Source of the DNA: Cetorhinus maximus
Lineage: Eukaryota
Direction: 5' to 3'
Length of the DNA: 64,000 nucleotides
Assembly (NCBI RefSeq): GCF_964194155.1
Contig: NC_135916.1
Coordinates: 930,001 to 994,000, forward strand
The translations under genes and the position numbers were made by a program. Below are positions 3,201-22,999 of this stretch, piece after piece. Each line of letters starts with the position of its first letter. The stretch's first letter is position 1. The notes beneath the pieces are model-generated. The model was not told the origin of the DNA, made no database searches, and worked only from the letters and a program-made list of their open reading frames with translations.

Positions 3201-4512
3201 AGGATTTGTCCCTGTGGTGTAGGTACACCCACAGTGCTGTTAGGGAGGGAGTTCCAGGATATTGTCCCTGTGGTGTACGTACACCCACAGTGCTGTTAGG
3301 GATGGAATTCCAGGATTTTGTCCCTGTGGTGTAGGTACACCCACAGTGCTGTTAGGGAGGGAGTTCCAGGATTTTGTCCCTGTGGTGTAGGTACACCCAC
3401 AGTGCTGTTAGGGAGGGAGTTCCAGGATTTTGTCCCTGTGGTGTAGGTACACCCACAGTGCTGTTAGGGAGGGAGCTCCAGGATTTTGTCCCTGTGGTGT
3501 AGGTACAACCACAGTGCTGTTAGGGAGAAAGTTCCAGGATTTTGTCCCTGTGGTGTAGGTACACCCACAGTGCTGTTAGGGAGAGAGTTCCAGGATTTTG
3601 TCCCTGTGGTGTAGGTACACCCACAGTGCTGTTAGGAATTGCGTTCCAGGAATTTGTCCGTGTGGTGTAGGTACACCCACAGTGCTGTTAGGGAGGGAGT
3701 TCCAAGATTTTGCTGTTAGTCACGGCAAGATTTTGTCACGGGGTGTAGGAACACCCACACTGCTGTTAGGCAGGAGTTCTAGGATTTTGTCCCTGTGGTG
3801 TAGGCACACCCACAGTGCTGTTAGAGAGGGAATTCCAGGATTTTGACCCTGTGGTGTAGGTACACCCAGAGTGCAGTTAGGGAGCGAGTACCAGGATATT
3901 GTCCCTCTGGTGTAGGTACAACCATAGTGCTGTTAGGGAGGGAGTTCTCGGATTTTGTCCCTGTGGCGTTACTATACCCACCGTGCTGTTAGGGAGGGAG
4001 TTCCAGGATTTTGTCCCTCTGGTGTATGTAGACCTACAGTGCAGTTAGGGAGGGAGTTCCAGGATTTTGTCCCTGTGGTGTAGGTACACCCACAGTGTTG
4101 TTAGTGAGGGTGTTCCAGGATTTTGTCCCTGTGGTGTAGGTACATCCACAGTGCTGTTAGGGAGGGAGTTCCAGGATTTTGTCCCTGTGGTGTAGGTACA
4201 CCCACAGTGCTGCTAGGGAGGGAGTTCCAGGATTTTGTCCCTCTGGTGACGGTACACCCACAGTGCTGTTAGGGAGGGAGTTCCAGGATTTTGTCCGTGG
4301 TGTTGGTACACCCACAATGCTGTTAGGGAGGGATTTACAGGATTTTGTCCGTGTAGCGTAGGTACACCCACAGTGCTGTTAGGGAGGGACTTCCAGGATT
4401 TTGATCCTGTGACAGTGAAGGAACTGCCAATATATTTCCATGTCAGGATGGTGAGTGAATTGGAGGGGAACTTCCAGCTGTGGTGTTCCCATCTATCTGC
4501 TGCCCTTGCCCT
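218..4512 (-). mobile_element. 3' fragment of a CR1/L2-group LINE split by an internal tandem amplification
   Basis: On the minus strand, 4512->4404 reads ...LTILTWKYIGSSFTVTGSKSW and 331->218 reads LQRFKMATHHHLLKG plus a tail ending TGAATGAAT-A-rich. An unamplified relative is at ~50270-50525 (+). Confidence 0.8.
332..4403. repeat. 56-bp minisatellite, ~72-73 head-to-tail copies
   Basis: Unit GTCCCTGTGGTGTAGGTACACCCACAGTGCTGTTAGGGAGGGAGTTCCAGGATTTT. Period of 56 checked at 841 vs 897; no unique spacers. Confidence 0.97.
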
Positions 4513-5935: not shown

Positions 5936-6313
5936 CTACTTGGAGCTGGTGTACTTGGTCACCGCCTTGGTGCCCTCCGACACGGCGTGTTTGGCCAGTT
6001 CCCCGGGCAGCAGCAGGCGCACGGCGGTCTGGATCTCCCGGGAGCTGATGGTCTGCCGCTTGTTGTAATGGGCCAGGCGGGAAGCCTCGCCCGCGATGCG
6101 CTCGAAGATGTCGTTGACGAAGGAGTTCATGATACTCATGGCCTTGGAGGAGATGCCGGTGTCCGGGTGGACCTGCTTCATCACCTTGTAGATGTAGATG
6201 GAGTAGCTCTCCTTCCTGGATCTCTTCCTCTTCTTGCCGCTCTTGGGTGGCGTCTTCTTGATGATCTTTTTGGACCCCTTCTTAGCTGCTCCTGATTTCT
6301 TCTCGTCCACCAT
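5936..6313 (-). CDS. H2B: Histone H2B (125 aa, divergent N-terminal tail)
   Basis: MVDEKK...[27 protein letters not shown]...[16 protein letters not shown]; ATG at 6313; TATA, octamer and CCAAT upstream. Confidence 0.98.
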
Positions 6314-6364
6314 TGCGCCGCTTAGCCTTAGACAAACAATTAGCAAACGCGCCCTTGGGAAGCT

Positions 6365-6432
6365 CCTTTTATAGACAACGCCTGACGCCTATGCTAATGA
6401 AGGATCGTTGAAGGTCTGTCTCCTGATTGGCT
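6365..6432 (-). promoter_or_regulatory. H2B promoter: TATA, octamer variant, CCAAT
   Basis: TATAAAA at 6367-6373, ATGCTAAT at 6391-6398, ATTGG at ~6426. Confidence 0.85.
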
Positions 6433-6472
6433 GATTAACGATTATGTCAATTTCTGATACACTGCATCTCTC

Positions 6473-6609
6473 AGCTGTGGCTCAGTTCATAGCAACCCTC
6501 GCCTTTGAGTCAGAGGGTTGTGGGTTTATGTCCCACTCCCGGAAAACCAAGAACTGTGATTGTACTCGAAAGAGTTGCAATCTGTGACTGTTGATAACTC
6601 GAAAGAATT
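6473..6609 (+). mobile_element. tRNA-headed short element with twin GAAA hairpins, copy 1
   Basis: AGCTGTGGCTCAG (A-box-like), GGTT(T)ATGTCC (B-box-like), then two ACTCGAAAGA(G/A)TT motifs. Confidence 0.8.
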
Positions 6610-6736
6610 TTGGTTCCTTTAAAGTTTTTCCTTGATTTTACAGCTGACCTGACTTAGGGGCTGTGCTTAATTTCTCCCTTGTTATTGTTAATTTAGTTAA
6701 TTGTTTTGACCCCAAAAGAGTTACACTGCATCTCTC

Positions 6737-6873
6737 AGCTGTGGCTCAGTCCATAGCACCCTCGCCTTTGAGTCAGAGGGTTGTGGGTTCATGTCCCACT
6801 CCCGGAAAACCAAGAACTGTGATTGTACTCGAAAGAGTTGCAATCTGTGACTGTTGATAACTCGAAAGAGTTT
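6737..6873 (+). mobile_element. tRNA-headed short element, copy 2
   Basis: Near-identical to copy 1; both copies are preceded by TACACTGCATCTCTC. Confidence 0.8.
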
Positions 6874-7189
6874 CTGGTTAGTGGTTGTCTCTGTACCTGT
6901 CAAATTCTGGCATATGATTGGCGGATTTAACCTTGTTAGTCTTTGGATTGTGTTTGATGATTTTCCTCTGCACTTTTCCTTAGCCGAATGTGACTGGGGT
7001 CTACATATAGCGTTTGTGTTAGCTTCTTGTATGAGTGTGGCTTTCAATATGTTCCCCTCAGCGCAGATGAGCCAGTGTGTATTTAAGTTCCCTGTTAGCT
7101 TTCGATACAAGAGAGAGTGTGTGTATTTAATGTGTACATAGCAGTTTCTGATTGGGAGAGATGGGTTTACGCTGCACCTGCACCTACCG

Positions 7190-8915
7190 ACATAGGTGGA
7201 TACAAATAAAATGGCCGCCTGCTTGATAGCTAGGTGGAGGTCTGTTGGAGAATGCAGGGAGATATCAATGGACTACTCCTTTGGGCAGGAAAGTGGCAAT
7301 AGGAATTGTTATGACACAACAGTTGTTAAAGGCTGTTTAAATCCCCGCGGGAATCTTGAACAACTGCCATAACCTATATTTTCAATGAGTATGTTTGCGA
7401 TGCAGCTCTGAATTCAGGAATAAGACCACCAAGCCTCAAAAGGTATTTGTATAAAACTAAATTAAACATTTAAAAAAAAAACAACAAATTGAACACATAC
7501 ACATGTCTACAAATTACTACCATAACAACTTTTAGACAAATCCCCGAATTAATCACTCCTAGGTAAATCTTCATCAAGGCAACAGTAACCCATGGGCTTT
7601 AAACAGACACCAAGAAAAGCACATTTGACCTGACGAATTCGAAATGAGGTAACTTTCAATTTGGTTCCTTGCAGACATAGTTGTGGGTTGGTAAGGCTGG
7701 TTAGATTTTGAATGCATCTGACCTACACACACAAACTCTTTTCTGTTGGTACCTAACTTCCCACTTGAATGTACATTTTCCATTGTATTACTAACTTTTT
7801 AAAAAATTGTATCTCTCCTAACAATAATCCTCTTAGTCCATCAATTTTATTAGTAATATAAACACATTGCTTGGCATCTCCCACCTAGGTGCAAGATTTT
7901 ACCCATTCTTTTGAATGGTTAATTCAACAAGTGCAAATTGCACTTTACCTTTTAACTTCTTTACTTTTATCTAATTCGCATCTCAAAATTACTATACAAC
8001 CAAACACCATGACTTTAATCCAAGTAAGCCACACACAGGCACACACGTAGGCAGAGCTACAATTCCAATTTAAAAATACATTCCATTAACATTATAGATG
8101 TCAATATCTCTTCATGACAGAATTCAGCCCAGGGAATTGTGAGGTGATGCATTTTGAGGGGATCAAGCAAGGCAAAGGAATACACAGTTCACAGGAGAAC
8201 ACTGGGAGGTGTAGAGGAATTGAGGGACAGTAGAGAGGATGCCCACTGGTTCCTGAAGGTAGCAGGACAGGTCGATAAAGGGTTTAAGAAGGCATATAGA
8301 ACCTGTTCCTTTATATGGCAAGGTATGAGTATAAACAGGGAGGTTAGGCTGGAACTTTATTAATCATGAGTGAGGCCACAACTTGAGTCCAATGTGCAGT
8401 TCTGGTCATCTCATTTCATAAAGGGTGTAATGTCATTGGAGAGGATACAGAGGAGATTTCGGAGGATGTTGCCAGGAACTGGAATAATGCGGTCACAATC
8501 AAAGATCAGATGTGTTGGGCTTGTTTTCCTATGGAACAGAGGAGGCTGAGGGAAGATTTGATTGAGATGTCTACAACGTTGTGAGGGGCCTGGATAGAAT
8601 GAAGGAGGAATGTCAATTTACGTTAGCGCAGAGGTCAGTTACTGTGGGTCATAGATTTAAAGGGAATAGTAGAAATATTAGAGAGGAGATGAATTTTTTT
8701 TTTCACCCGGAGGGTAGCAAGGCCTGGAACTCAACGCCTGAAAGGGTAGTAGAGGCAGAAACGCTCAATTCATTTAAACAGTGCCTGGATATGGAGCTCA
8801 AGTGCCATAACCCGCAGGGTTACGGAGCAAGTGATAGAAAGTGGGAATAGGTTGGATGGCTGGTGCAGACACAATGGGCCAAGAGGCTTCCATCTGTGCC
8901 ACAAAATTCCTATGC
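7190..8915 (+). mobile_element. Degraded CR1 LINE fragment interrupted by a solo LTR
   Basis: AAGTGGCA..GGAAT|TC..TGTGAGGTGATGCATTTTG continues across the insert; VQFWS and WNS motifs and the 3' tail are present. Confidence 0.8.
7307..8119 (-). mobile_element. Solo LTR (813 bp), probably Gypsy-type
   Basis: Ends TGTTATGA...TCATGACA (TG..CA, 7/8 inverted match); 4-bp TSD GAAT at 7303-7306 and 8120-8123; related partial LTR at ~33530-33793. Confidence 0.8.
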
Positions 8916-9639
8916 TTCTATGTGAATTTACTATTCGTCTGTATGTGTCAGTCTCTTGACTGTGAACGTGAGTTTTGCCCCACCCTCCGTGTCAATGCCT
9001 GATATGTGATTGTGAGGTTTACTCGGTATTTCAGTTGTCTGTGATTTTTCAAGGTTTAATTCATAACTGTCAGTCTGCCATATTGGTAGCCTTGTGTGCT
9101 CTGTGCCTATCAGTTTGTAACATGAGAGTGCGGGTTTCATGGTGTACCTGTGCTCCTATGCTTTATGGAAACCTGTGTTACTGCACCAGTCAAAAAGAGG
9201 ATTTTAATTTTCTGTCAATATATGCCCCAAAGGTGGTTGTCCCTCTGTATCTATCAGCATCTAGCTTATGTTTTCTTGGAGGCTAAGGTGGTGTAATTTG
9301 GATTACCCCACAACTGTCAGTTTTGGTTATTGGAATTCATCCGCCATTATTAATTGAATCAATCTGATTATGTAAGCTGAAACTATCATTTACAGTATGC
9401 GTTGAATGTTCTTGTTTGTTTCATCATTTCTCTGTGAAGATTTCAGTTACGGGCATGTGGATGTGGTTTTCGCTCTATACCTATCACTCTTTGGGATGTT
9501 GGTGTGTGTGTTTGCCCTGTGCATGTCTGCCCTGTGCGTGTCACTGTCTGCTTTCGAGATATGTCAATTATCCTGTACCTGTTGCTGTTTAGTAAGTGAA
9601 TGTAGGGCTTAGGTCGCACCTGCGAATCTCGAGGAGAGA

Positions 9640-10070
9640 TTGGGTCGACTAGGCCTGTATTCACTGGAGTTTAGAAGAATGAGAGGGGATCTCAGTGAAA
9701 AGTATATAATTCTGATGGGACTGGACATGCTGGCTGCAGGGGTGATGTTTCCTCTGGCTGGGTGGTTGCGAACAAAGGGTTACAGTGTCAGGATATGTGG
9801 TAGGCCATTTTGAACTGAAATGAGGAGAGGTTTCTTAGCTCTGAGGGTGGTGAACCTTTGGAACTGTCTACCACACAAGTCTGTGAAGGCCAAGTCACCG
9901 ACTATACTTAAGAAGGAAATAGATAGATTTAAAGACACAAAATGAGTCAAGAGGTGTGGGGAGAGCGCGGGACTTTGGTGTTGAGATAAAGGATCAGCCA
10001 TGGTCATACTGTATGGTGGAGCAGGCTTGAAGGGCCGAGTGGCCTACTCCGGCTCTGATTTTCTATGTTA
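9640..10070 (+). mobile_element. CR1 LINE 3' fragment
   Basis: AGAAGAATGAGAGGGGATCTC (RRMRGDL), TGGAAC and the GAAGGGCCGAGTGGCCTACTCC tail. Confidence 0.85.
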
Positions 10071-10215
10071 CTCCATGCCTACCTGTCTGTGCCATGATCC
10101 TAAATTTAATTATTCTCTGCCAGTATCTGTATTAAATGTTTTATCCTATACCTGCCAGTTTGCTATTTAAGGGTTAGATTTCATCAGTCCTTACAGTTCC
10201 TAGTCTGGATGTACA

Positions 10216-11101
10216 TGTCATAGGGTTTTACAGCACAGAAACAGGCCCTTCAGCCCATCGTGTTTATGCTGGACATCAAGCAACTATCTATCCCAATCCC
10301 ATTTTCCAGCACTTGGCCCTTAGCCCTGTATGCTATGGCGTTTCAAGTGCTCATCTAAATACGTTTTAATTGTTGTGAGGGTTCCTGCCTCTACCACCCC
10401 CTCAGGCAGTGTGTTCTAGATTCCAACCACCCTCTGGGTGATTTTTCTTATCCCTCAAATCCCCTCTAAATCTCCTGCCCCTCACGTTAAATCTTTGTCA
10501 CCTGGTTATTGACACCCCTGCTCAGGAGGAGACGTTCTTCCTATCTACTCCCCACGTAATTTTGCATACCTCTATCAGGGACCCCTCGGCCTTCTCTGCT
10601 CTAAGGAAAACAACCCGAGCCTCTCTTCATAGCTGAAATGCTCCAGCCCAGGCAACACCCTGGTAAATCTCCTCTGCACTCTCTCCAGTGCAATCACATC
10701 CTTCCTATAATGTGGCGACCAGAACTGCACACAGTACCCCAGCTGTGGCCTCATCAAATGATTTATACAGCTCCAACATAACCTCCCTGCTCTTATATGC
10801 TATTCCTCAACTAGTAAAGGCAAGCATCCCAAATGCCTTCTCAAACACCTTATCTACCTGTACTGCTGCCTTCAGGGATCTATGGACATGTGTACCAAGG
10901 TCCCTCTGATCCTCTGTACTTTCTAGGGTCCTGCCATTCATTGTGTATTCCCTTCCTCCCAAAACACATCGCCTCACAGTCCTCAGGATTAAACTCTATT
11001 TACCATTGCTCAACCCATTTTACCAGCCCATCTATATCGCTTTGTAATCTAAGGCTTTCCTCCTCACTATTTACCACCCCACCAAATTCTGTGTCATCTG
11101 C
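10216..11101 (-). mobile_element. CR1 LINE 3' fragment (RT C-terminus)
   Basis: Minus-strand ADDTEFGGVVNSEEE and [31 protein letters not shown]. Confidence 0.9.
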
Positions 11102-11158
11102 GTGTGTTTCGGTGCGGGTGTGCGCGTCTGGGTGATTTTCCAGTTCCCTGTTCCAGAC

Positions 11159-11331
11159 TTTTTTTTTAAAGTGAAAAATAAACATTATTCATAAAATATC
11201 TGTAAGGTCATTACAAAACATTTCAAAATGGCCATCACAAAAAAAATAGTCAACGTTTCCACATAGATCATGAGGTGCTTCAGTACAATCAATGAACATT
11301 ACAGACATCTCAGCATGGTCATTACAGTCAG
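11159..11331 (-). mobile_element. Short Tx1-type 3' UTR/poly(A) insertion
   Basis: Poly(T) followed by the reverse complement of a tail resembling 31380-31450; flanked by the direct repeat GTTCCCTGTT(C/T)CAGAC at ~11143-11158 and ~11332-11347. Confidence 0.65.
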
Positions 11332-11665
11332 GTTCCCTGTTTCAGACATTGTCACAATCTCATTGTAACAAAGGATGCCGAAATCCGCCCACCTTCCGCT
11401 CTCTTTTACCTGCGGGAGGAATGGTGATTCGGGTGTCAAACCATCAGGTTTCAAACGACTCCTCCACGCCACCCCCACACCCCCACCATTGAATAAACAT
11501 TATTCATAAAATATCTGTAAGGTCATTACAAAACATTTCAAAATGGCCATCACAAAAAAAATAGTCAACGTTTCCACATAGATCATGAGGTGCTTCAGTA
11601 CAATCAATGAACATTACAGACATCTCAGCATGGTCATTACAGTCAGGTTCCCTGTTTCAGACATT

Positions 11666-14600
11666 CAGACTAAAGGTCTGGGACTCTCAGAGACAGTGGG
11701 TTTGGTAGGAGAATAAATGCTTTAATATGGGTTTAAAGATTGTATCCATAAATGTGCGTAGCATTAAATCTACTACGCGATGTGTTGCGACCTTGGACTA
11801 CCTAGCCAAGGTCAAAGCTGACCTGTTGTTTCTGCAGGAGTGTGCGATACCGCACCTCAGCTCCTACAGGCAATGGTCACGATGGTGGTCCCACGGGCCA
11901 TCGATCTGGTCGGGCGGAAACGACTCTCGTTCCTCCGGCCTGGGTATTCTGCTGCGGGGAGGCAACTTCACCGTCTCCGAGGTCAAGGAGGTGGTGGGCG
12001 GGCGACTCCTGGTAGCAGACGTAATGTACAAGAACGCTCCACTCCGGTTAATTAACGTGTACGGCCCGGCACAAGGGGCTGAGCGGCTGGAGGTTTTTCA
12101 GCAGCTCCCACTGCTGCTGGCGACCTCCAGGCCGGTCATTCTGGGCGGGGACTTCAACTGCATCATCGATGCGGCTGGACGATCCGGCAGGGCCGGAAGC
12201 AGATTGGACGCTACGTCCAGATCCCTGATGGAAACAGTTAAGGATGCCAAGCTGCACGACGTCTTCAGCAACCCTGCAGACGGAGCGCAGCGTAGATACA
12301 CCTGGTCGCGGCCAGACGGGTCCATTCGTTCCAGGATAGACTTCCTGTTTGTGTCCCGTGCATTCACAGTCAGATCCACCGACGTCAAGCCGGTGTTCTT
12401 CTCTGACCACTGCCTCCTACTGGCGGACTGCCACTTGGAGGAAGACCTGAGGGTGGGCAGGGGGGCATGGAAGCTAAATGTGCAACTGCTGACCCCAGAG
12501 AACATTGAGGAGCTCAAGAGGGATTACAAAGGTTGGAGAACCGTGAAACCCCTCTTTGAGTCCCTGACACACTGGTGGGAAGTGATCAAGGGAAGCATCA
12601 AGAGGTTTTTCATCCTCAAAGGCACCCAGAAAGCTAGAAAGGAACAGAGGGAAATGTCCCGACTCCAGGAAAAGATGCAGAATCTGCTCCGGCTGCGGTC
12701 GATGGGGGTCGATGTCAAGGAGGAGCTCCAAGAGGTGAAGGGCCAGCAAGCCTCGCACTTTGCCTCGGAGGCCTCCAAGATCATCTTCCGTTCCAGAGTC
12801 CGCTCCGTGGAGCAGGATGAGACGTGCTCACGTTTCTTCTTCCAAAAGGTACACAGAGAGCGCTCTGTGATCAGCAGCCTGAAGGAAGAAGACGGCTCAG
12901 TAAAGTCATCACGGTCCGACATTCTGAGGATCAGCAAATCCTTTTATGCCGGACTGTATGACGTGAAGCCCACGGACAGCACGGCCTCCCAGTCCTTCCT
13001 GTCCTCTATCACGGAGGTCCTAGACCACAGTACGCGGGAGAGCCTAGACAAACCGCTAACCCCTGACGAACTGACTAAGGCCCTCGAGTCCTTCGAGAAG
13101 AGTAAAACCCCCGGAAGCGACGGCCTGCCGGCGGAGTTGTATTCGGCTCTGTGGGACTTGATCGGCCCAGACCTGCTAGAAGTGTACGAGAGTATGCTCC
13201 TGGCCGGCAGCATGTCAGAATCCATGAGGAAAGGCATCATCACCCTCATCTACAAGCACAAGGGGGAAAGGGAGGAAATTAGAAATTGGCGACCCATTTC
13301 ACTGTTGAATATGGACTATAAGATTCTGTCCAAGGTCATCGCCAACCGGGTCAAATCCGCTCTGGAATTGGTGATTCACCCTGACCAGACCTGCTCTGTG
13401 CCAGGCAGGAAGATCTCTGACAGCCTGGCGCTGCTCAGGGATACGATTGCCTATGTACAGGACAGGAGTGTGGATACCTGCCTCATCAGCTTGGATCAGG
13501 AGAAGGCCTTTGACAGAATATCGCACACCTACATGGGGGATGTGCTCTCCAAAATGGGGTTTGGGGAGGGAATTCGAAATTGGATCCAACTGCTCTACAC
13601 TAACATCAGTAGCGCAGTCTCAATCAATGGGTGGGAAACAGATAGCTTTCCGATTAAATCTGGAGTCAGGCAGGGCTGCCCTCTCTCGCCTGTCCTTTTT
13701 GTGTGCTGCATAGAACCCTTTGCCGAGTCCATCAGGAAGGATCCGGGCATAAGAGGAGTGACGATCCCAGGCAGTGGAGGCACTCAGGTAAAAGCCTCCC
13801 TGTACATGGACGACGTCGCCGTCTTCTGCTCGGATCCGCTGTCGGTGCGCAGACTGATGCACGTCTGCGACCAGTTCGAACTGGCCTCGGGAGCCAAGGT
13901 AAATCGTGGGAAGAGCGAGGCCATGTTCTTTGGGAAGTGGGCTGACCGATCCTTTGTCCCCTTCACTGTCAGGGCTGACGGCCTGAAGGTGCTGGGGATA
14001 TGGTTCGGAGGGACCGGGGCATGCGTTAGAAACTGGAAGGAGCGAGTGGCTATGGTGAAAAGGAAACTGGGCATGTGGGAGCGACGCTCCCTCTCCATTG
14101 CGGGTAAGAACCTGGTCATCAGGTGTGAGGTACTCTCGCTGTTGCTGTACGTGGCGCAGGTCTGGCCCATTCCACACTCCTGCGCGATGGCGATCACTCG
14201 AGCCATCTTCCGCTTTATCTGGAGGTCGAAAATGGATCGTGTCTGCAGGGACGCGATGTACAAGCCTCTAGATAAAGGGGGAAAAAACGTGCCCAACATC
14301 GCCCTCATACTGATGGCCACCTTTGTGTGCGGCTGCATCAAGCGGTGCGTAGACCCTCAGTACGCAAACACCAAGTGTCACTACGTGCTGAGGTTCTACC
14401 TGTCCCCGGTGTTGCGAAGGATGGGTCTGGCCACGCTGCCGCGGAACGCTCCAAGTAGTTGGACCGTGCCGTACCACCTGTCCCTGGTGGAAAAATTTAT
14501 GCAGAAAAACACCTTTGACCACAAGTCCATCAGGCAGTGGTCGGCACGTAACGTCCTAGAGGCCCTGAGGGATAAGGAGAGGGTGGACCCTGTGGGATGG

Positions 14601-15396
14601 TTCCCCGAGCAGACTGTCAAAGTCATTTGGCAGAATGCCTCATCGCCAGAACTTTCCAACAAGCACCAAGACGTAGCTTGGCTGGTGGTGAGAAAGGCCC
14701 TCGCCGTCAGATCCTTCCTACACGCCAGGAGTCTCACCCCCTCTGCACGATGCCCTCGAGGTGGCTGTGGTGGGGAAGAGACCGTTGTTCACCTCCTTGT
14801 GGATTGTGCCTTTGCAAAGAAAGTCTGGAGAGAGATGCAGTGGTTGCTGTCGAGGTTCATCCCGAGCAGTTCTGTGACACAGGACTCTGTGCTCTACGGG
14901 CTGTTCCCAGGGACACACACCGAGACAAACATCAACTGCAGCTGGAGGATCATCAACTCGGTGAAAGACGCGCTTTGGTCTGCCCGAAACTTGTTGGTCT
15001 TCCAGCACAAAGAGTTGTCCCCGACCGATTGTTGCGGACTGGCACAATCCAAAGTCCAGGACTACGTGCTGAGGGACGCACTAAAGCTTGGGGCAGCTGC
15101 CGCAAAGGCGCAATGGGGAAGGGTCGCTGTCTAAGACCTTTCTACCACAGCGCACCGAGAGACTGGGAACTGTTTAGAGCCCCTCGGGCTGTACAGATCA
15201 AAATGAAAGGCTGTAAATGACTGTAATATTGTTTGTACTGATGCACCTGGTGATACATTTTGTAAAAGTTTAACCTGGATTGTACCCTTGTAATGTTGTT
15301 TTTGAAATGGTTTTGAATGTGATTGAAGATTTTTATGAATAAAGTATATTTTTACAAAAAAAAAAAAAACAAAAAAAAAAAAAAAAAAAAAAAAAA
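11666..15396 (+). mobile_element. Tx1-clade (L1 group) non-LTR retrotransposon, 5'-truncated with ORF1 lost
   Basis: Intact ORF2, ~220-nt 3' UTR, AATAAA at ~15338 and a ~40-nt poly(A) at 15356-15396. Confidence 0.93.
11727..15134 (+). CDS. Tx1-type ORF2p: APE endonuclease + reverse transcriptase + C-terminal zinc knuckle (1135 aa)
   Basis: Endonuclease motifs SINVR, LQE, GDFN, SRIDF, SDH; RT motifs PGSDG, WRPISLLN, LDQEKAFD, GVRQGCPLSP, YMDD; CPRGGC...H....C; no stops. Confidence 0.95.
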   Translation: MGLKIVSINVRSIKSTTRCVATLDYLAKVKADLLFLQECAIPHLSSYRQWSRWWSHGPSIWSGGNDSRSSGLGILLRGGNFTVSEVKEVVGGRLLVADVMYKNAPLRLINVYGPAQGAERLEVFQQLPLLLATSRPVILGGDFNCIIDAAGRSGRAGSRLDATSRSLMETVKDAKLHDVFSNPADGAQRRYTWSRPDGSIRSRIDFLFVSRAFTVRSTDVKPVFFSDHCLLLADCHLEEDLRVGRGAWKLNVQLLTPENIEELKRDYKGWRTVKPLFESLTHWWEVIKGSIKRFFILKGTQKARKEQREMSRLQEKMQNLLRLRSMGVDVKEELQEVKGQQASHFASEASKIIFRSRVRSVEQDETCSRFFFQKVHRERSVISSLKEEDGSVKSSRSDILRISKSFYAGLYDVKPTDSTASQSFLSSITEVLDHSTRESLDKPLTPDELTKALESFEKSKTPGSDGLPAELYSALWDLIGPDLLEVYESMLLAGSMSESMRKGIITLIYKHKGEREEIRNWRPISLLNMDYKILSKVIANRVKSALELVIHPDQTCSVPGRKISDSLALLRDTIAYVQDRSVDTCLISLDQEKAFDRISHTYMGDVLSKMGFGEGIRNWIQLLYTNISSAVSINGWETDSFPIKSGVRQGCPLSPVLFVCCIEPFAESIRKDPGIRGVTIPGSGGTQVKASLYMDDVAVFCSDPLSVRRLMHVCDQFELASGAKVNRGKSEAMFFGKWADRSFVPFTVRADGLKVLGIWFGGTGACVRNWKERVAMVKRKLGMWERRSLSIAGKNLVIRCEVLSLLLYVAQVWPIPHSCAMAITRAIFRFIWRSKMDRVCRDAMYKPLDKGGKNVPNIALILMATFVCGCIKRCVDPQYANTKCHYVLRFYLSPVLRRMGLATLPRNAPSSWTVPYHLSLVEKFMQKNTFDHKSIRQWSARNVLEALRDKERVDPVGWFPEQTVKVIWQNASSPELSNKHQDVAWLVVRKALAVRSFLHARSLTPSARCPRGGCGGEETVVHLLVDCAFAKKVWREMQWLLSRFIPSSSVTQDSVLYGLFPGTHTETNINCSWRIINSVKDALWSARNLLVFQHKELSPTDCCGLAQSKVQDYVLRDALKLGAAAAKAQWGRVAV

Positions 15397-15504
15397 TCTC
15401 ATTGTAACAAAGGATGCCGAAATCCGCCCACCTTCCGCTCTCTTTTACCTGCGGGAGGAATGGTGATTCGGGTGTCAAACCATCAGGTTTCAAACGACTC
15501 CTCC

Positions 15505-16267
15505 ACGCCACCCCCACACCCCCACCACTCCCACCCCCCCACCCCCCCCACCACTCCCCCACCCCTACCCCACCACCACTCCCCCCACCACTCCCCCCCC
15601 ACCACCACTCCCCCCACCACCCCCACCCCCCCCGCCCACTCCCCCCACCACCCCCACCCCCCCCGCCCACTCCCCCCACTCCCCACCCCCCCGCCCCCCC
15701 CGTCCACTCCCCCCAACCCCCCCACCCCCACCCCACCCCCCCCCCACCCCCACTCCCCCCACCCCACCCCCACTCCCCCCACCCCCCCCCACCCCCACTC
15801 CCCCCACCCCCCCCACTCCCCCCCACCCCACCCCCACTCCCCCCCCACTCCCCCCCCCACCCCCACTCCCCCCACTCCCCCCACCCCCCCCAACCCCCCT
15901 CCCCCCACCCCACCCACCCTCCCTCCCCCCCACCCCACCCACCCTCCCTCCCCCCACCCCCCCACCCTCCCTCCCCCCCACCCTCCCTCCCCCCACCCCC
16001 CCACCCCCCCTCNNNNNNNNNNNNNNNNNNNNNNNNNNNNNNNNNNNNNNNNNNNNNNNNNNNNNNNNNNNNNNNNNNNNNNNNNNNNNNNNNNNNNNNN
16101 NNNNNNNNNNNNNNNNNNNNNNNNNNNNNNNNNNNNNNNNNNNNNNNNNNNNNNNNNNNNNNNNNNNACCCCACCCCCACTCCCCCCACCCCACCCCCAC
16201 TCCCCCCACCCCACCCCCACTCCCCCCACCCCACCCCCACTCCCCCCACCCCACCCCCACTCCCCCC
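15505..16267. repeat. C-rich tandem/low-complexity tract with an assembly gap (N 16013-16167)
   Basis: Runs of CCCCA/CCCCACT; 20-bp period CCACCCCCACTCCCCCCACC after the gap; G-run-rich minus strand. Confidence 0.92.
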
Positions 16268-16929
16268 TTCGCCATTACAATCCGTCTCTAACCGGACTCG
16301 CTTCTATCCGTTTGAAAATTGTGGGCAGAAAGTTATCTTTTGTTTCCACTCCCACCACTCTATAAGCGGACACACGTCAGTTCAAGCATTGTAAAACAAC
16401 AAGCAGATTGTTGACTGATCCCAGTGCTCTGAACGACAGAGGAGTGTGTGCGTCTGAGTGTCTCTTGAAACTCGTTTCTTTTTTTAAACATACATTTCAG
16501 TATGTTGCAAGGAAGTGTGAATTTCATTGTGTTGTTTAATTTCCGGGTTATGGTGCTTTCATTGTATCTGTCCTTTCCGGTAATTGAAATGTTGTCTTCC
16601 GTCTGTTTATTTGATGTTTAGCGAGTTTTTAAACACAATAATTTCGATTTCTGATATGCGAACCAGTCTCACCATCTCTCGTACCCTCTCTCTCTCTCTC
16701 TCTATACGTGCGAATTGTTGTTATGTGGTGCCAGGTTTCATGCTGTAGCTGCCAGCCTGAATGTCAATGTAAATTTCAATTTGGCAATGATAGAAAGCCA
16801 CGTGTTTACTGAGGCCTTTTCTTATCATTCAACTGCTTAAAGCGGAGGAGACCCGAGACAGAAAAAAAAATAGTTGAACTCACTGCGGCAAAAAAGATAT
16901 TCGAATATTAAAGAGTAGGTCGAGAGAAT

Positions 16930-17212
16930 GGTGGACCAACACACGTTACCAGAATCAAATTATAAATGGCAGGAGTAAATACGATGCGAGAACTTCTTTC
17001 ACCCAGAGGGTGGTTGGAGTCTGGAGAAAACTTCAAGGGTGGAAGCAGGTTCGATGGAGTTATTAAAAATTGGGAACTGAATTAGTACCCGAAGAGAATA
17101 TGTGCGAGGTCACGGGGGATAAGGCCAGGAGTGGTGGAGCTAGGTAGAATGTTCTTTCAGAGATCCAGTACAGGTTCGACGGGCCGAACGGCTTCCTTCT
17201 GCACTGTAAAGA
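16930..17212 (+). mobile_element. CR1 LINE 3' fragment
   Basis: TTCACCCAGAGGGTGG and GGGCCGAACGGCTTCCTTCTGCACTGTAA tail. Confidence 0.75.
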
Positions 17213-17521
17213 TTTGAGACTGTGAAGCCACAAACTCACATCAGGCACTGGCGAATCTCCTTTGGGTATAAAGCCTCTGTCCTAATTAAACGTCACAAGG
17301 GCCAGATAACAACGTGTTCGAAGAAATGGGTTTTAACACATCGATTCTGTAGGTACTAGCGAACATGAGTGGTATAATTTTACAAAACCTCACGAAAAGA
17401 CAACGATAAGCAAGTGCATTACCTTCAACCCGAAAGACTGAACACAATCCCCTTAAATGCAGAATGAGTGTAAGTAACGCCTCTCAGCAAGTAACCAGCC
17501 CTTTACACTGATCAAGTGAGT

Positions 17522-17537
17522 GGCTCTGAAAAGAGCC
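17522..17537 (-). terminator. Histone stem-loop of H2A
   Basis: Canonical GGCTCTTTTCAGAGCC preceded by CCCAAA. Confidence 0.95.
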
Positions 17538-17567
17538 TTTGGGTTCTTAGTTTAAAGAATGGTCGCT

Positions 17568-18071
<504 letters not shown>

Positions 18072-18309
18072 TCACCAATCCGGAGACGCCACGGTGTCCA
18101 AAAAGGGAAGGAGGGCGGATAACGAGCGGCCTCCTGTTTCAAAGTTTAAAGACCGCCCATATTTTCGAAACAATTTTCCTATACAACGTCGCCTTAATAA
18201 ATAGTTTATCTGGAGTTTCAAAACATTTCAAAAGTTATGACCGGTTCCACATCTGATCACGCATTTGTGATTTGCTGTTACTAACTGGTCTCTCCTCGGA
18301 TTTATTCAT

Positions 18310-18925
18310 CGTCACAGAGTTTCACAGCACAGTAACAGGCCCTTCGGCCCATCGTGTCCGTGCCGGCCATCAAGCACCTATCCCATTTTCCAAGCACTTG
18401 GCCCGCAGCCCTGTATGTTATGGCGTTTCAAGTGCTCATCTGAATACCTCTTAAATGCCGTGAGGGTTCCTATATATGCTTCTATAGATATAGCTCTTGG
18501 GGCGAAAGGGATCAAAAGGGTATGGGGAGAAAGCTGGAGCAGGTTATTGAGTTGGATGATCAGCCATGATCCTAATGAATGGCGGAGCAGGCTGGAAGGG
18601 CTGAATGGTCCACTCCTGCTCCTAGTGCCTATGTTTCTACCTCTACCACCCCCTCAGACAGTGCGTTTCAGATTCTAAACCCCCTCTGGATAAAAAAAAA
18701 ATCCTCAAACCCCCTCTAAACCTTCTGCCCCTTTACCTTGAATATATTCCCCCTGCTTATTGGCACCTCCGCTAAGGAAAAAAGTTTCTTCCTCTCTATG
18801 CCCCTCACTATTTTATTGTATACCTCTATCACGTCCCCCCTAAGCCTTCCCTGCTCTAACGAAAACAACCCTAGTCTATCCAGTCTCTCTTCCTAGCTGA
18901 AATGCTCCAACACAGACAACATCCT
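18310..18925 (-). mobile_element. CR1 3' fragment with a nested opposite-strand CR1 tail (~18484-18636)
   Basis: ACAGGCCCTTCGGCCCATC tail in reverse; the internal + strand tail TAGATATAGCTCTTGGGGCG...CTATGTTTC interrupts it. Confidence 0.8.
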
Positions 18926-19059
18926 TATGTGCAATTGCGTTTCAAGCGTTCATCTAAATACTTCTTACTTCACAATGCTTCCTTTCATCCTTTTTGTAAC
19001 TTGCGGTCAAAAAGCTCTTTTTACATACGAAAAGTGGTCTCGTGTCAGTTCAAAATGGT

Positions 19060-19722
19060 AACAAGAAGAACTATGAGGTTGGAAAGTGTGGAAAGAAGAT
19101 CTCCAGAGGAAATGAGGTCAGTAACAGTCCTGGAATAATTGGCTTGATGTTCAGTGGTGGGGTCATGGTCCAGGGGAAGGTAGGAGGAAGTGTCTGCGAG
19201 TTGACGCTCAGCCTCCGCGAGGTAGAGGTCAGCGCGCCAGACAACAACAGCACCACCCTTGTCAGAAGGTTTGATGACAATGTCAGGGTTGGACCTGAGA
19301 GAACGGAGTGCAGTAAGTTCAGAGAGAGACAGGTTAGAATGGGTGAGAGGAGCAGAGAAATCGAGACGACTGATGTCACGCCGAGAGTTCTCAATGAAAA
19401 GATCAAGAGAAGGGAAGAATCCAGAGGGAGGGGTCCAGGTGGAGGGAGAATATTGGAGGTGGGCAAAAGGATCCGTTGAACAGGGAGAGGACTCCTGCCC
19501 AAAGAAGTGAGCACGGAGACGAAGACGGCCGAAGAAGAGTTCAGCATCGTGCCGAGCCCGAAATTCATTGAGATGAGGGCGCAAGGGTATAAAACTGAGT
19601 ACTTTGCTAAGCACTGAACGTTCAGCATCAGAGAGAGGAAGGTCAGAGAGTATGGTGAATACATGATCAGGGCTGGGATTGGAAAACGGGATGGGGACAG
19701 AGGGACAGGCAGGGGTGGAAGG
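19060..19722 (-). mobile_element. Penelope-like element fragment (N-terminal/RT start)
   Basis: LSDAERSVLSK.LSF.P, RLRLRAHFF, IVIKPSDKGGAVVV; homologous to 52150-52450. Confidence 0.9.
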
Positions 19723-20694
19723 TTTTTTTTTGGAAAAATATACTTTATTCATAAAATATCTTCAATCACATTCCAAAAACACCATTTCAAGGGTACAATC
19801 CGGTTCAACTTTTACAAATTGTATCACCAGGTGCATCAGTACAAACAATATTACAATCATTTACAGCCTTTCATTTTGAGCTGTACAGCCTGCGGGGGTT
19901 TAAACAGTTCCCAGCCCCTCGGTGCACTGTGGCAGAAAGGTCTTAGACAGCGACCCTTCCCCATTGCGCCTTTGCGGCAGCTGCCCCAAGCTTTAGTGTG
20001 TCCCTCAGCACGTAGTCCTGGACTTTGGAATGTGCCAGTCCGCAACACTCGGTTAGGGACAACTCTTTTTGCTGGAAGACCAACAAGTTTCGGGCAGACC
20101 AAAGCACGTCTTTCACCGAGTTGATGATCCTCCAGCTGCAGTTGATGTTTGTCTCGGTGTGTGTCCCTGGGAACAGCCAGTAGAGCACAGAGTCCTGTGT
20201 CACAGAACTGCTCGGGATGAACCTCGACAGCAACCACTGCATCTCTCTCCAGACCTTCTTCGCAAAGGCACAATCCACAAGGAGGTGAACAACGGTCCCT
20301 TCCCCACCACAGCCACCTCGAGGGCAACGTGCAGAGGGGGTGAGACTCCTGGCGTGTAGGATTTAATTTGAATCGTTCCTGAGCAAACGTAAGCCTCAAA
20401 TCCAGCAATCAATCAGACAATGGAATAATCCAAATAAGATGGGCATCATGTGGCCTGACTGATGGAGATTAATTAGGAAGGAATGGGCTCAGCTGTAAAC
20501 TAGCAGCTGACATGCTTTCAACTTTCCAAGTAACTCAACTCTTTCAAGTTATCAACAGTCACAGATTGCAACTCTTTCGAGTACAATCACAGTTCTTGGT
20601 TTCCGGGAGTGGGACATGAACCCACAACCCTCTGGTTCAAAGGCGAGGGTGCTATGAACTGAGCCACAGCTGACTCCTGGCGTGTAGGAAGGTC
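19723..20694 (-). mobile_element. Tx1 3' fragment, same family as 11666-15396, carrying a nested insertion
   Basis: DCAFAKKVWREMQW...KAQWGRVAV, 3' UTR and poly(A); highly similar to 14712-15360. Confidence 0.93.
20362..20671 (-). mobile_element. tRNA-headed short element, copy 3 (core 20536-20671 plus ~175-nt 3' extension)
   Basis: 18-bp TSD GACTCCTGGCGTGTAGGA at 20344-20361 and 20672-20689; the site is single-copy in the intact Tx1. Confidence 0.85.
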
Positions 20695-20749
20695 CTTGAT
20701 AGGCGTTGGTATCGATGAGTTGTTGGAGCGTCGGAAGCGACGGAAATCG

Positions 20750-20880
20750 CTTTTTATAGGCAACTGCGCATCCCTATGCTAATGAAGGATGCGCGAAGGG
20801 AATGTTTGTGATTGGTTAACTTAGAATGATGTCAGTTTCAACGTTCTATGTTTCTGATTGGTTGCTTTAGGTAGCCAATA
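20750..20880 (-). promoter_or_regulatory. Orphan H2B-type promoter
   Basis: TATAAAAA at 20751-20758, CTATGCTAATGAAGGAT at the same 17-nt spacing as both H2B genes, two ATTGG boxes; no H2B CDS follows. Confidence 0.82.
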
Positions 20881-21351
20881 ATATTCAGCTCTACTCACAG
20901 CCACAAGCGGCCGCAGCATTCTGGTCTCCCAGTCCCCTTGCCTGTTCCCCTTCACCATTTTCGGGTCCCTGCTTAATCCACCATGGCACAGGCGGCGCTA
21001 AATAATAGCGCCACATTCCAAAGGAATTGTCGGATTTCAAAAGCCCGTCAAAATATTTTTGAAACATGCAAGGGCTTTAATACACAATATCAGGTAAACC
21101 TGTATATCATCTTCCCACGGCAAAGGCTCCGAATATCTCCTGCAGTAAAACGATTTCACATTTCGTCACAAACCCCGGCTTCCCTTTCTAACCCCGATTC
21201 CTATTTGCGTTTATTCTCCGTCCCTTTGAAATCGCCTGTGCTTGCAAGGCCCAATGGACAATATAATCCCTGAGCGGATACACATCTGATCAACCTTTGT
21301 GAATAGGTCATATGGCAGGAGTAATAATTGGTTAACCTTCATGGATGTCGA

Positions 21352-21475
21352 GGGTAGAGGTGTCAGCTGTGGCTCAGTTCATAGAGGGTTGTGGGTTCAT
21401 GTCCCACTCCTGGACAAGAACTGTGATTGTACTCGAAAGAGTTGCAATCTGTGACTGTTGATAACTCGAAAGAGT
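21352..21475 (+). mobile_element. tRNA-headed short element, copy 4 (internal deletion in the head)
   Basis: 14-bp TSD TTCATGGATGTCGA at 21338-21351 and 21476-21489. Confidence 0.85.
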
Positions 21476-21619
21476 TTCATGGATGTCGACCTGGAGCGCA
21501 CAGACTTGTGACGAAAAGTGAGAGTGAAGTCTTGCACCAAGAGTGGCAGATAATTGAATGTTTCATTCAGTAACAATTAAAGGCGATGTATCTTCAAGAA
21601 AAAATGTGATTTTATTTTT

Positions 21620-21742
21620 GATATTACGGGGCATGGAGAGAAAGCGGGAATATGGTGTTGAGATAGAGGATCAGCCATGATCATATCAATAACGGAGCAG
21701 CTCGAAGGGCCGAACGGCCTTCATCTGTTCCTAGTTCCTATG
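21620..21742 (+). mobile_element. CR1 3' tail
   Basis: GAGGATCAGCCATGATC...GAAGGGCCGAACGGCCT. Confidence 0.75.
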
Positions 21743-22003
21743 GAAGGCTGCGTCATTTTGCATTTTATCAGGTCTTTATTCAAATACAGGAAACTTGCAT
21801 TAAAAATTAACACAAGTAAGGAAATTAACTCATTAGACTTAAAGGCCAAACACTGAAACACCATTTGACAGCACGTTAGTGTAATAGAAGCGAGAAAGTG
21901 CGTGTGAGCGGGGTCACGAGAGAGAGAAGAACATGAACATTTTAAACAAGGTGCCAAGTCTATTCTAACAGACGTTGTAGCTCTTGTCACAGAGGCTGTG
22001 GGT

Positions 22004-22019
22004 GGCTCTTAGAAGAGCC
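22004..22019 (-). terminator. Histone stem-loop of H2B copy 2
   Basis: GGCTCT-TCTA-AGAGCC-ACCCA; AAGAGCT HDE downstream. Confidence 0.93.
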
Positions 22020-22059
22020 GTTGTGTTTTGGGTTGAATTTGTTTGCTCAGTTACGATTT

Positions 22060-22437
22060 TCACTTGGAGCTGGTGTACTTGGTCACCGCCTTGGTGCCCT
22101 CCGACACGGCGTGTTTGGCCAGTTCCCCTGGCAGCAGCAGGCGGACGGCGGTCTGGATCTCCCGGGAGCTGATGGTCTGCCGCTTGTTGTAATGGGCCAG
22201 GCGGGAAGCCTCGCCCGCGATGCGCTCGAAGATGTCGTTGACGAACGAGTTCATGATGCTCATGGCCCGGGAGGAGATGCCGGTGTCCGGGTGGACCTGC
22301 TTCATCACCTTGTAGATGTAGATGGAGTAACTCTCCTTCCTGGCCTTCTTCCTCTTCTTGCCGCTCTTGGGTGGCGTCTTCTTGACGACTTTCTTGGCGC
22401 CCTTCTTGGGAGCTCCTGCCTTTTTATCGTCAACCAT
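22060..22437 (-). CDS. H2B: Histone H2B (125 aa, second variant)
   Basis: [16 protein letters not shown]...[20 protein letters not shown]...TKYTSSK; ATG at 22437. Confidence 0.98.
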
Positions 22438-22487
22438 GCTCAAGTTCAACTTCGGAAACAGAATAAATGAAATGCGCTCGCACAGCC

Positions 22488-22595
22488 CTTTTTATAGGCA
22501 ACGCCTGAGGTCTATGCTAATGAAGGATGGGTGAAGGGAACGTTGCTGATTGGCTATTGTACGGTGATGTCAATTTCAGTCGTCCTGATTGGTTA
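22488..22595 (-). promoter_or_regulatory. H2B promoter: TATA, octamer variant, two CCAAT
   Basis: TATAAAAA at 22489-22496, ATGCTAAT at 22514-22521, CTGATTGG twice. Confidence 0.85.
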
Positions 22596-22669
22596 GCGCC
22601 GCGCTCCTTTCACATCCAGTGCTTGCCACAGACACGCACTTGGCAACGCCAATCACGTCCTTCACCTTT

Positions 22670-22805
22670 AGCTCTGGCTCAGTCCATAGCACCCTCGCCT
22701 TTGAATCAGAAGGTTACGGGTTCATGTCCCACTCCCGGAAAAACCAAGAACTGTGATTGTACTCGAAAGAGTTGCAATCTGTGACTGTTGATAACTCGAA
22801 AGAGT
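22670..22805 (+). mobile_element. tRNA-headed short element, copy 5
   Basis: 9-bp repeat TTTAGCTCT at 22667-22675 (overlapping the 5' end) and 22806-22814. Confidence 0.82.
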
Positions 22806-22999
22806 TTTAGCTCTTCAGGCAACAAACCGATCAAATTTTCATCTTGCCTCATTTCTGAGGAAGGCTCGTCGATCTGAAACGATAACTATTGTCATTTTTA
22901 AAAAAAAATCATTCATGGGATGTGGGCGTCATGCAGCATTTATTGCCCCTGTTCAGAGGGCATTTAATTGTCAACCGCACTGATGATGTGGTTTTTTTC

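Follow-up and report, generated by a model that had tools for sequence, protein, structure and literature searches.

Why do five copies of one short element lie beside histone H2B promoters in a single stretch of shark DNA? The stretch, called the window below, comprises 64,000 nucleotides of Cetorhinus maximus DNA (assembly GCF_964194155.1, NC_135916.1, positions 930,001 to 994,000); it is part of contig C39 in a genome of 3.99 Gb and is placed at the edge of a histone gene cluster. The initial annotation had described the element as a dedicated new system, a tRNA-headed mini-retroelement found only beside H2B promoters and guided there by tethering. We consider another answer rather probable: the element is a genome-wide short interspersed element (SINE) of about 143 bp with a tRNA-like head, likely transcribed by RNA polymerase III (hereafter Pol III) and likely inserted by long interspersed elements (LINEs) of the Tx1 clade, and its excess at histone gene starts likely arises from open, heavily transcribed DNA together with suitable local sequence, not from an H2B-specific tether. 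Positions given without a contig are those of the window; contigs carry C numbers and loci L numbers.

The SINE and its distribution

BLAST of the whole window returned five copies of the SINE, where they had first been placed, and none elsewhere in it. The full-length element measures about 143 bp, not 137 bp as first proposed; its true start lies 6 nt further 5′, and copy 4 begins earlier than described (Table 1). A tRNA-like head is followed by two terminal hairpins (z = -2.95 for the body) and there is no poly(A) tail; both the hairpins and the missing tail had been recognized correctly. The head contains A- and B-box-like motifs, identified by eye against the consensus, and a T-arm-like hairpin. 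Rfam gave no small nuclear RNA match for the SINE. Marks of retrotransposition are 5′ truncation and target duplications of at least 9 bp at 35 sites. A longer SINE, whose head is similar to that of the 143-bp SINE, was seen at L105.

The direct repeats of 15, 18, 14 and 9 bp reported at the window copies were all found, two of them enclosing more than the SINE. The 18-bp repeat surrounds copy 3 plus a transduced tail of 173 bp, and the 15-bp repeat surrounds copy 1 plus the 113-bp 3′ end of a Tx1 LINE. Copies 1 and 2 therefore form one stack, and the window has four SINE places, not five; the whole stack is flanked by a 6-bp repeat only (6451-6456 / 6871-6876). Independent insertion, as originally inferred, agrees with the differing flanks and duplications, except that copies 1 and 2 share their stack. 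Segmental duplication was rejected as the source of the five copies, since flanks and duplications differ. Copy 3 does lie in a Tx1 fragment, as had been noticed, within about the first 20 bp of the piece at 19723..20361.

Exact matches to two SINE motifs numbered 5,701 and 7,745 genome-wide, with 0 for the reversed controls, and we estimate a total of ~13,300 copies (the two motif lists overlap 43/74 on C1). On C1 the spacing of 109 SINE sites was consistent with random placement (Kolmogorov-Smirnov p 0.63), and at none of 26 unselected C1 sites was a histone gene present within 1.5 kb. Abundant, randomly spread copies are what the initial annotation had itself set against its proposal. Placement only beside H2B promoters was rejected as an exclusive rule, as the copies are dispersed and other histone genes, H3 and H2A, also carry the SINE; the supposed dedicated system is a SINE of known kind.

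A chance model gives 0.12-0.22 expected SINE copies per 64 kb and P(≥4) of 1e-5 to 9e-5 per window. Four SINE places within 16 kb of the window are thus unusual for a single window; 0.6 to 5.5 windows with at least four places are expected by chance genome-wide, so the window alone is no proof of targeting.

Reads of one other organism covered the SINE body at almost no depth and the LINE end deeply, a contrast suggesting that the family is young and lineage-limited; read-assembled contigs are taken to indicate presence, not absence. Read pieces from four runs covering 6200-7100, inspected for an empty allele, included none that spanned the locus.

Two LINEs, read-through tails and target sites

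The shared 3′ end, proposed at the outset as the route to a partner LINE, led to a Tx1 LINE that we call family A: the 113 bp separating copies 1 and 2 are its 3′ end. The terminal bases of family A fold into a hairpin which the SINE carries twice, and the SINE thus shares its 3′ end with this LINE, over about 15 nt only. An intact family A copy (L101, on C2) encodes an ORF1 (open reading frame 1) protein of 721 aa with a weak zinc knuckle and an ORF2 protein of 1296 aa with endonuclease and reverse transcriptase (RT) domains. ORF2 is 50% identical over its length to Xenopus Tx1L (YTX2_XENLA, UniRef). Judged by its sequence, family A is a Tx1-clade LINE, having two ORFs, an ORF2 with APE endonuclease and RT, and Tx1 as its closest relative. 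Among named homologues of the LINE protein, one from a stingray is the most identical (68%); a protein-cluster atlas search returned unnamed RT clusters only. The ORF2 protein of family A would bind the shared 3′ hairpin.

Several loci show stacks in which a single repeated duplication carries SINE and LINE ends. Genome-wide there are 1,723 exact head-to-tail SINE junctions (control 0), stacks or partial repeats make up 5 of the 26 C1 sites, and stack joints are also present in raw reads of another sample. The duplication remakes the site, which is then used again, producing head-to-tail stacks that mix SINE and LINE ends. Inverted back-to-back SINE pairs occur at a histone start at L319 (C32:17.84 Mb) and at C2490:33.3-33.7 kb; at L319 a single duplication flanks both SINEs, as if its own RNA had primed each end of the break.

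The 173-base tail of copy 3 occurs at one other place, on C9, where it immediately follows a full SINE that has a duplication of its own. Copy 3 and this source are identical at 307/308 bases, and the tail ends a few bases before the first T6 run at the C9 locus. A second transduced tail has 81 copies, and all 40 examined directly follow a SINE; its source is L386, where a T5 run lies just past the ends of the daughters. The SINE has no T-run longer than three, and a Pol III transcript of it would continue to the first T-run in the flank. That daughters of both sources carry flank stopping just before a T-run is what Pol III read-through predicts, an indirect indication.

A second, putative Tx1 family, family B, gave 1,663 dispersed exact matches. 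Its ORF2 combines endonuclease, RT and zf-RVT domains and is 30% identical to Tx1L over 900 aa. Among 40 tailed SINE copies, seven adjoin a family-B 3′ end and one adjoins family A; 2 of 30 family-B ends on C1 are directly followed by a duplication and a SINE. The seven tailed copies and the two C1 ends beside family B indicate that the SINE likely uses both LINEs, and read-through-tailed copies are likely often carried by the poly(A)-type family B. No preference of the SINE for small-RNA genes was seen, with one tRNA gene among the 40 tailed copies and none at the 26 C1 sites.

Family-B 3′ ends were also observed, in sense orientation, adjoining a U6 gene, a tRNA gene and U2-like sequence (L287, L272/L273, L278, L284/L285, L290, L358, L395); the U6 and tRNA genes are Rfam assignments on C1 loci, and the U2-like sequence was recognized by eye. 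Many other family-B sites begin with ATCT.

The targets of the SINE, first thought to share no obvious motif, do have one. At the 35 sites with duplications of at least 9 bp the first four letters are mostly T, A/T, C and A/C, and C is preferred at -4 and -1. Because the motif is partly priming homology, scoring was confined to the upstream eight letters; this upstream-only, leave-one-out score gave p 1e-10 for 32 non-window sites, and the five window junctions lie at the 94th to 99.96th percentile. Insertion would begin with an endonuclease nick at such a short motif and priming by short RNA-DNA matches, the duplications left behind being 9-18 bp long.

The best target site is a multicopy sequence with 1,027 exact matches; a DDE_Tnp_4 transposase remnant lies upstream of it, and it coincides with the stop of an ORF that faces it. 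From this Pfam family and the layout we take it to belong to a Harbinger-type DNA transposon. Family A occupies 2 of 20 such sites, and 5 of 19 family-A loci, a small sample picked by similarity, lie in one; the SINE was there in 1 of its 28 top matches and at 0 of the 26 C1 sites. About 26 of the first 100 SINE stack junctions use the site (by eye). Family A and the largest SINE stacks prefer this one ORF end. Kojima counts as target preference a multicopy sequence in >20% of flanks (PMC4494074); by this rule family A has such a preference and the SINE itself does not. One of the 20 Harbinger-type sites, at L153 (C1:21.14 Mb), is immediately followed by a 5S rRNA copy that is full length (Rfam, 94 bits).

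Histone start codons and the source of the bias

The histone cluster on C32 was surveyed over 783 kb of unique DNA containing 328 genes with complete 5′ flanks. After a first look at 28 H2B and 30 H3 loci, 60 further stretches formed a held-out set. Eleven SINE matches were found, which are 10 events after merging one duplicate. In eight of the ten a start codon is no more than 50 bp away (H3 4, H2B 3, H2A 1), and these are all in sense orientation and have different junctions; genome density would predict 0.11 such copies, and conditional on the DNA sampled p is 4e-10. The held-out set by itself placed 4 of 6 events at starts (p 8e-5). Family B behaves alike: for 13 of 20 ends the start of an H2B, H3 or H4 gene is no more than 30 bp away, each time in sense orientation, and one H2B start (L343) has both the SINE and family B.

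Genes with a SINE between -700 and +50 were 5/97 for H2B, 4/90 for H3, 1/91 for H2A and 0/50 for H4; the held-out counts were 5/50, 0/60, 1/59 and 0/48, respectively. The rate at H2B did not differ significantly from that at the remaining histones (p 0.46). The SINE was absent from all of the first 28 non-window H2B loci, six of which are promoterless retrocopies, and was present at the start codon in 4 of the first 30 H3 loci. An H3-specific hotspot, suggested by the latter, was not confirmed in 60 further H3 genes, none of which has the SINE. First-look candidates numbered 1,861 for H2B vs 420 for H3. With ~13,300 copies in total and few at histones, histone sites hold well under 1% of the SINE family.

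Of the 24 exact SINE-H3 junctions in the genome, 22 trace back to a single amplified locus and were counted as one. This H3 locus, with 3-5 SINE copies, recurs in at least 22 near-identical unplaced contigs (L245-L266), an amplified array or redundant assembly; here segmental duplication does account for the copies. Another H3 start, L214 (C32:11.53 Mb), shows a short direct duplication of the hotspot sequence with no insert between.

Each of the five window copies has one of three promoters with TATA box and octamer no more than 600 bp away; this part of the original description was borne out, with the qualification that the third promoter has no H2B gene behind it. As also stated there, the seven H1, H2A, H3 and H4 genes of the window have no SINE within 700 bp upstream. 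In favour of a local hotspot, three different retroelements (a Penelope-like piece, a family-B piece and copy 3) have nested at the orphan promoter, no more than 70 bp from its TATA box.

Both window H2B genes have promoterless retrocopies that share 5′ untranslated sequence with them: L053 has 27 nt in common with gene 1, and L055 and L060 have 27 and 16 nt in common with gene 2. These retrocopies imply germ-line transcription of the two genes, which likewise favours a local hotspot. Histone mRNA normally lacks poly(A). The Harbinger-type site preferred by family A is the exact position of two promoterless H2B retrocopies, L054 (C12:103.47 Mb) and L060 (C12:124.96 Mb), so this LINE likely copies histone mRNA.

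The likely cause of the bias is the openness of heavily transcribed 5′ ends. The starts of several histone types are over-hit, and accessibility in germ cells, with tolerance afforded by ~100 copies of each gene, would account for it. A number of observations weigh against this reading of the SINE and its targets. None of the 26 C1 sites has CpG-island-like flanks or an Rfam gene nearby; there is thus no general promoter preference, contrary to a plain open-chromatin prediction. The SINE excess at H3 failed to repeat in the held-out genes (4/30, then 0/60), where the excess did repeat at H2B (5/50) and H2A (1/59), and none of the 21 intact H1, H2A, H3 and H4 genes flanking the window on C39 carries the SINE. 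Some start-codon copies of family B are duplicates of one event, with 4 distinct 5′ ends visible. An upstream, antisense position is seen for four of the five window copies, and the C32 start-codon copies are sense. The H2B start site does not fit the SINE motif (by eye). As to transcription, the Pol III tRNA head claimed at first is tRNA-like, with no tRNA call by ARAGORN or Rfam.

It is possible, though we think it unlikely, that a protein or nascent RNA actively draws Tx1 particles to genes without introns that are highly transcribed (histones, U2, U6, tRNA), at their 5′ ends, and that the particles carry the SINE along. The clustering at start codons of four histone types that differ in sequence, all sense (8/8 SINE, 13/13 family B), would fit such tethering, as would the family-B ends beside U6 and tRNA genes and U2-like sequence on C1, the H2B mRNA retrocopies in the Harbinger-type site, which suggest that the machinery handles histone mRNA, the 2 of 81 daughters of one source at histone starts, and the general sparing of CpG-island promoters. 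However, over 99% of the copies lie at other places, priming at A-rich sequence on the sense strand close to start codons could yield the strand bias, and the factor is putative. Of the tethering at H2B promoters first proposed, the excess at histone starts survives, poorly explained by sequence alone, and the H2B specificity does not.

A full account without any chromatin effect, from a preference for certain sequences, selection relaxed by the redundancy of the cluster and duplication of genes, seems to us improbable. H3 starts do lie at the 98.5-99.9th motif percentile, and gene duplication is evident in the amplified SINE-H3 locus and in duplicates among the C32 matches. Yet top-1% motif sites occur every ~100 bp, and the cluster spacers, which make up 96% of the DNA and should be at least as tolerant, contain just 2 of the 10 events; the eight start-codon SINE copies also have differing junctions.

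A dedicated system acting only at H2B through a promoter factor, such as an octamer-binding complex, is very improbable, for although both window H2B genes and the orphan promoter have a SINE where 0/7 other histone genes do, and H2B has the highest raw rate on C32, the ~13,300 copies are dispersed, no SINE lies near 92 of the 97 other H2B genes, which share the octamer type, and the rates at H3 and H2A are similar. Openness of heavily transcribed 5′ ends is the reading that we prefer.

Window layout and relation to known systems

The features of the window are collected in Table 1. The name Penelope-like for the fragment at 19041..19722 is our assumption, based in part on a weak GIY-YIG match (E 0.022) of a 90% identical copy. 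The orphan promoter is 78% identical to the promoter region of H2B gene 2 (22488-22578).

Table 1. Coordinates of the SINE copies and associated features in the window
Feature	Position	Strand	Remarks
H2B gene 1	5936..6313	-	promoter TATA 6367-6374, octamer 6390-6398
15-bp target duplication, first copy	6458..6472	+	second copy 6722-6736
SINE copy 1	6471..6610	+	5′-truncated by 6 nt
Tx1 family A 3′ end, 113 bp	6612..6724	+	LINE with the SINE's terminal hairpin
SINE copy 2	6735..6873	+	one stack with copy 1
Tx1 family B ORF2	11727..15134	+	poly(A)-tailed family; 31% identical to family A
Penelope-like fragment	19041..19722	-	frame resumes 20692-20730; directly downstream of orphan promoter
Tx1-B fragment, 5′-truncated	19723..20361	-	94% identical to long window copy
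3′-transduced flank of SINE copy 3	20362..20536	-	source copy at C9:49.64 Mb
SINE copy 3	20537..20673	-	18-bp duplication 20344-20361 / 20672-20689
Orphan H2B-type promoter	20752..20840	-	TATA 20752-20759, octamer 20775-20783; no histone gene behind
SINE copy 4	21357..21477	+	full 5′ end, 21-bp internal deletion; 14-bp duplication 21338-21351 / 21476-21489
H2B gene 2	22060..22437	-	TATA 22490-22497, octamer 22513-22521
SINE copy 5	22670..22807	+	9-bp duplication 22667-22675 / 22806-22814

Other parts of the region also contain repeats. A tandem repeat with a 56-bp unit, about 70 units long, occupies 330-4400. In 11150-15530 a long family-B copy lies in the promoter of an apparent decayed H2A gene, with duplications of 133 bp and 174 bp, and a second poly(A) element ends at an apparent decayed H2A start. 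At C39:968,000-1,094,000 there are repeat units of ~19 kb with H1, H4, H3 and sometimes H2A, and without an H2B gene.

The closest known system is the crocodilian SINEU with its partner Tx1-Mar (PMC4494074). There too a SINE is carried by a Tx1-clade LINE, insertions are in tandem on one duplication, as described for SINEU-3, where the stack sandwiches a single duplication (Kojima 2015, PMC4494074), and preference for a DNA transposon site is weak to strong. According to the main text of that paper SINEU has U1 or U2 heads, poly(A) and no 3′ end shared with the LINE, whereas in the SINE described here the head is tRNA-like, the LINE-type hairpin is doubled, poly(A) is lacking and read-through tails can be traced. 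An excess at histone starts is not mentioned for SINEU in the passages covered. This SINE works like SINEU in its stacking and is not a SINEU member.

Preference of a Tx1 LINE for a transposon site has precedents. Xenopus Tx1L prefers a site in a DNA transposon, and Tx1-9_AMi prefers a Harbinger site, inserting ~300 bp from the Harbinger 5′ end (PMC4494074). Family A, compared with it by description, instead inserts at an internal ORF end, and about a third of the sampled copies use the site. Keno is a U2-targeting Tx1 (PMC4494074, PMC6136364), and family B likewise is found at U2-like sequence at several C1 loci (by eye). Unlike Keno, from which we set it apart by description, family B is dispersed and is also present at U6, tRNA and histone starts.

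Cartilaginous fish have other SINEs with tRNA-derived heads, namely HE1, SacSINE1, SINE2-1_CM and CmiSINE. As these are described in PMC3747384 and PMC5499810, chondrichthyan SINEs contain a central domain, and their partners are CR1 or L2 LINEs; the present SINE differs from those descriptions in consisting of a head and two hairpins and in having a Tx1 partner. In the literature we found neither this SINE nor a Tx1 target at histone starts described, with subscription journals, Repbase, Dfam and the supplements of PMC4494074 outside the scope of the search; the available text of PMC4455052, PMC4640811 and PMC13343379 had nothing relevant. It is a new-looking SINE family of known kind.

The read-through tails tag single source copies, one of them with 81 daughters, so that target choice and the use of two LINEs can be traced by lineage. 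Two unrelated Tx1 families and the SINE have a hotspot at histone start codons that can be measured. If position rather than sequence sets the hotspot, it would be a case of transcription-linked LINE targeting in a vertebrate and a source of mutation for histone clusters. A more far-reaching proposal, which we offer only tentatively and regard as doubtful, is that the two distant Tx1 families and their shared SINE are actively recruited, by position and not sequence, to the transcription starts of highly expressed intronless genes (all core histones, U2, U6, tRNA), for example via nascent histone mRNA or histone-locus bodies, the same machinery copying histone mRNA. Were this recruitment real, histone start codons would be an undescribed target of vertebrate retrotransposons.

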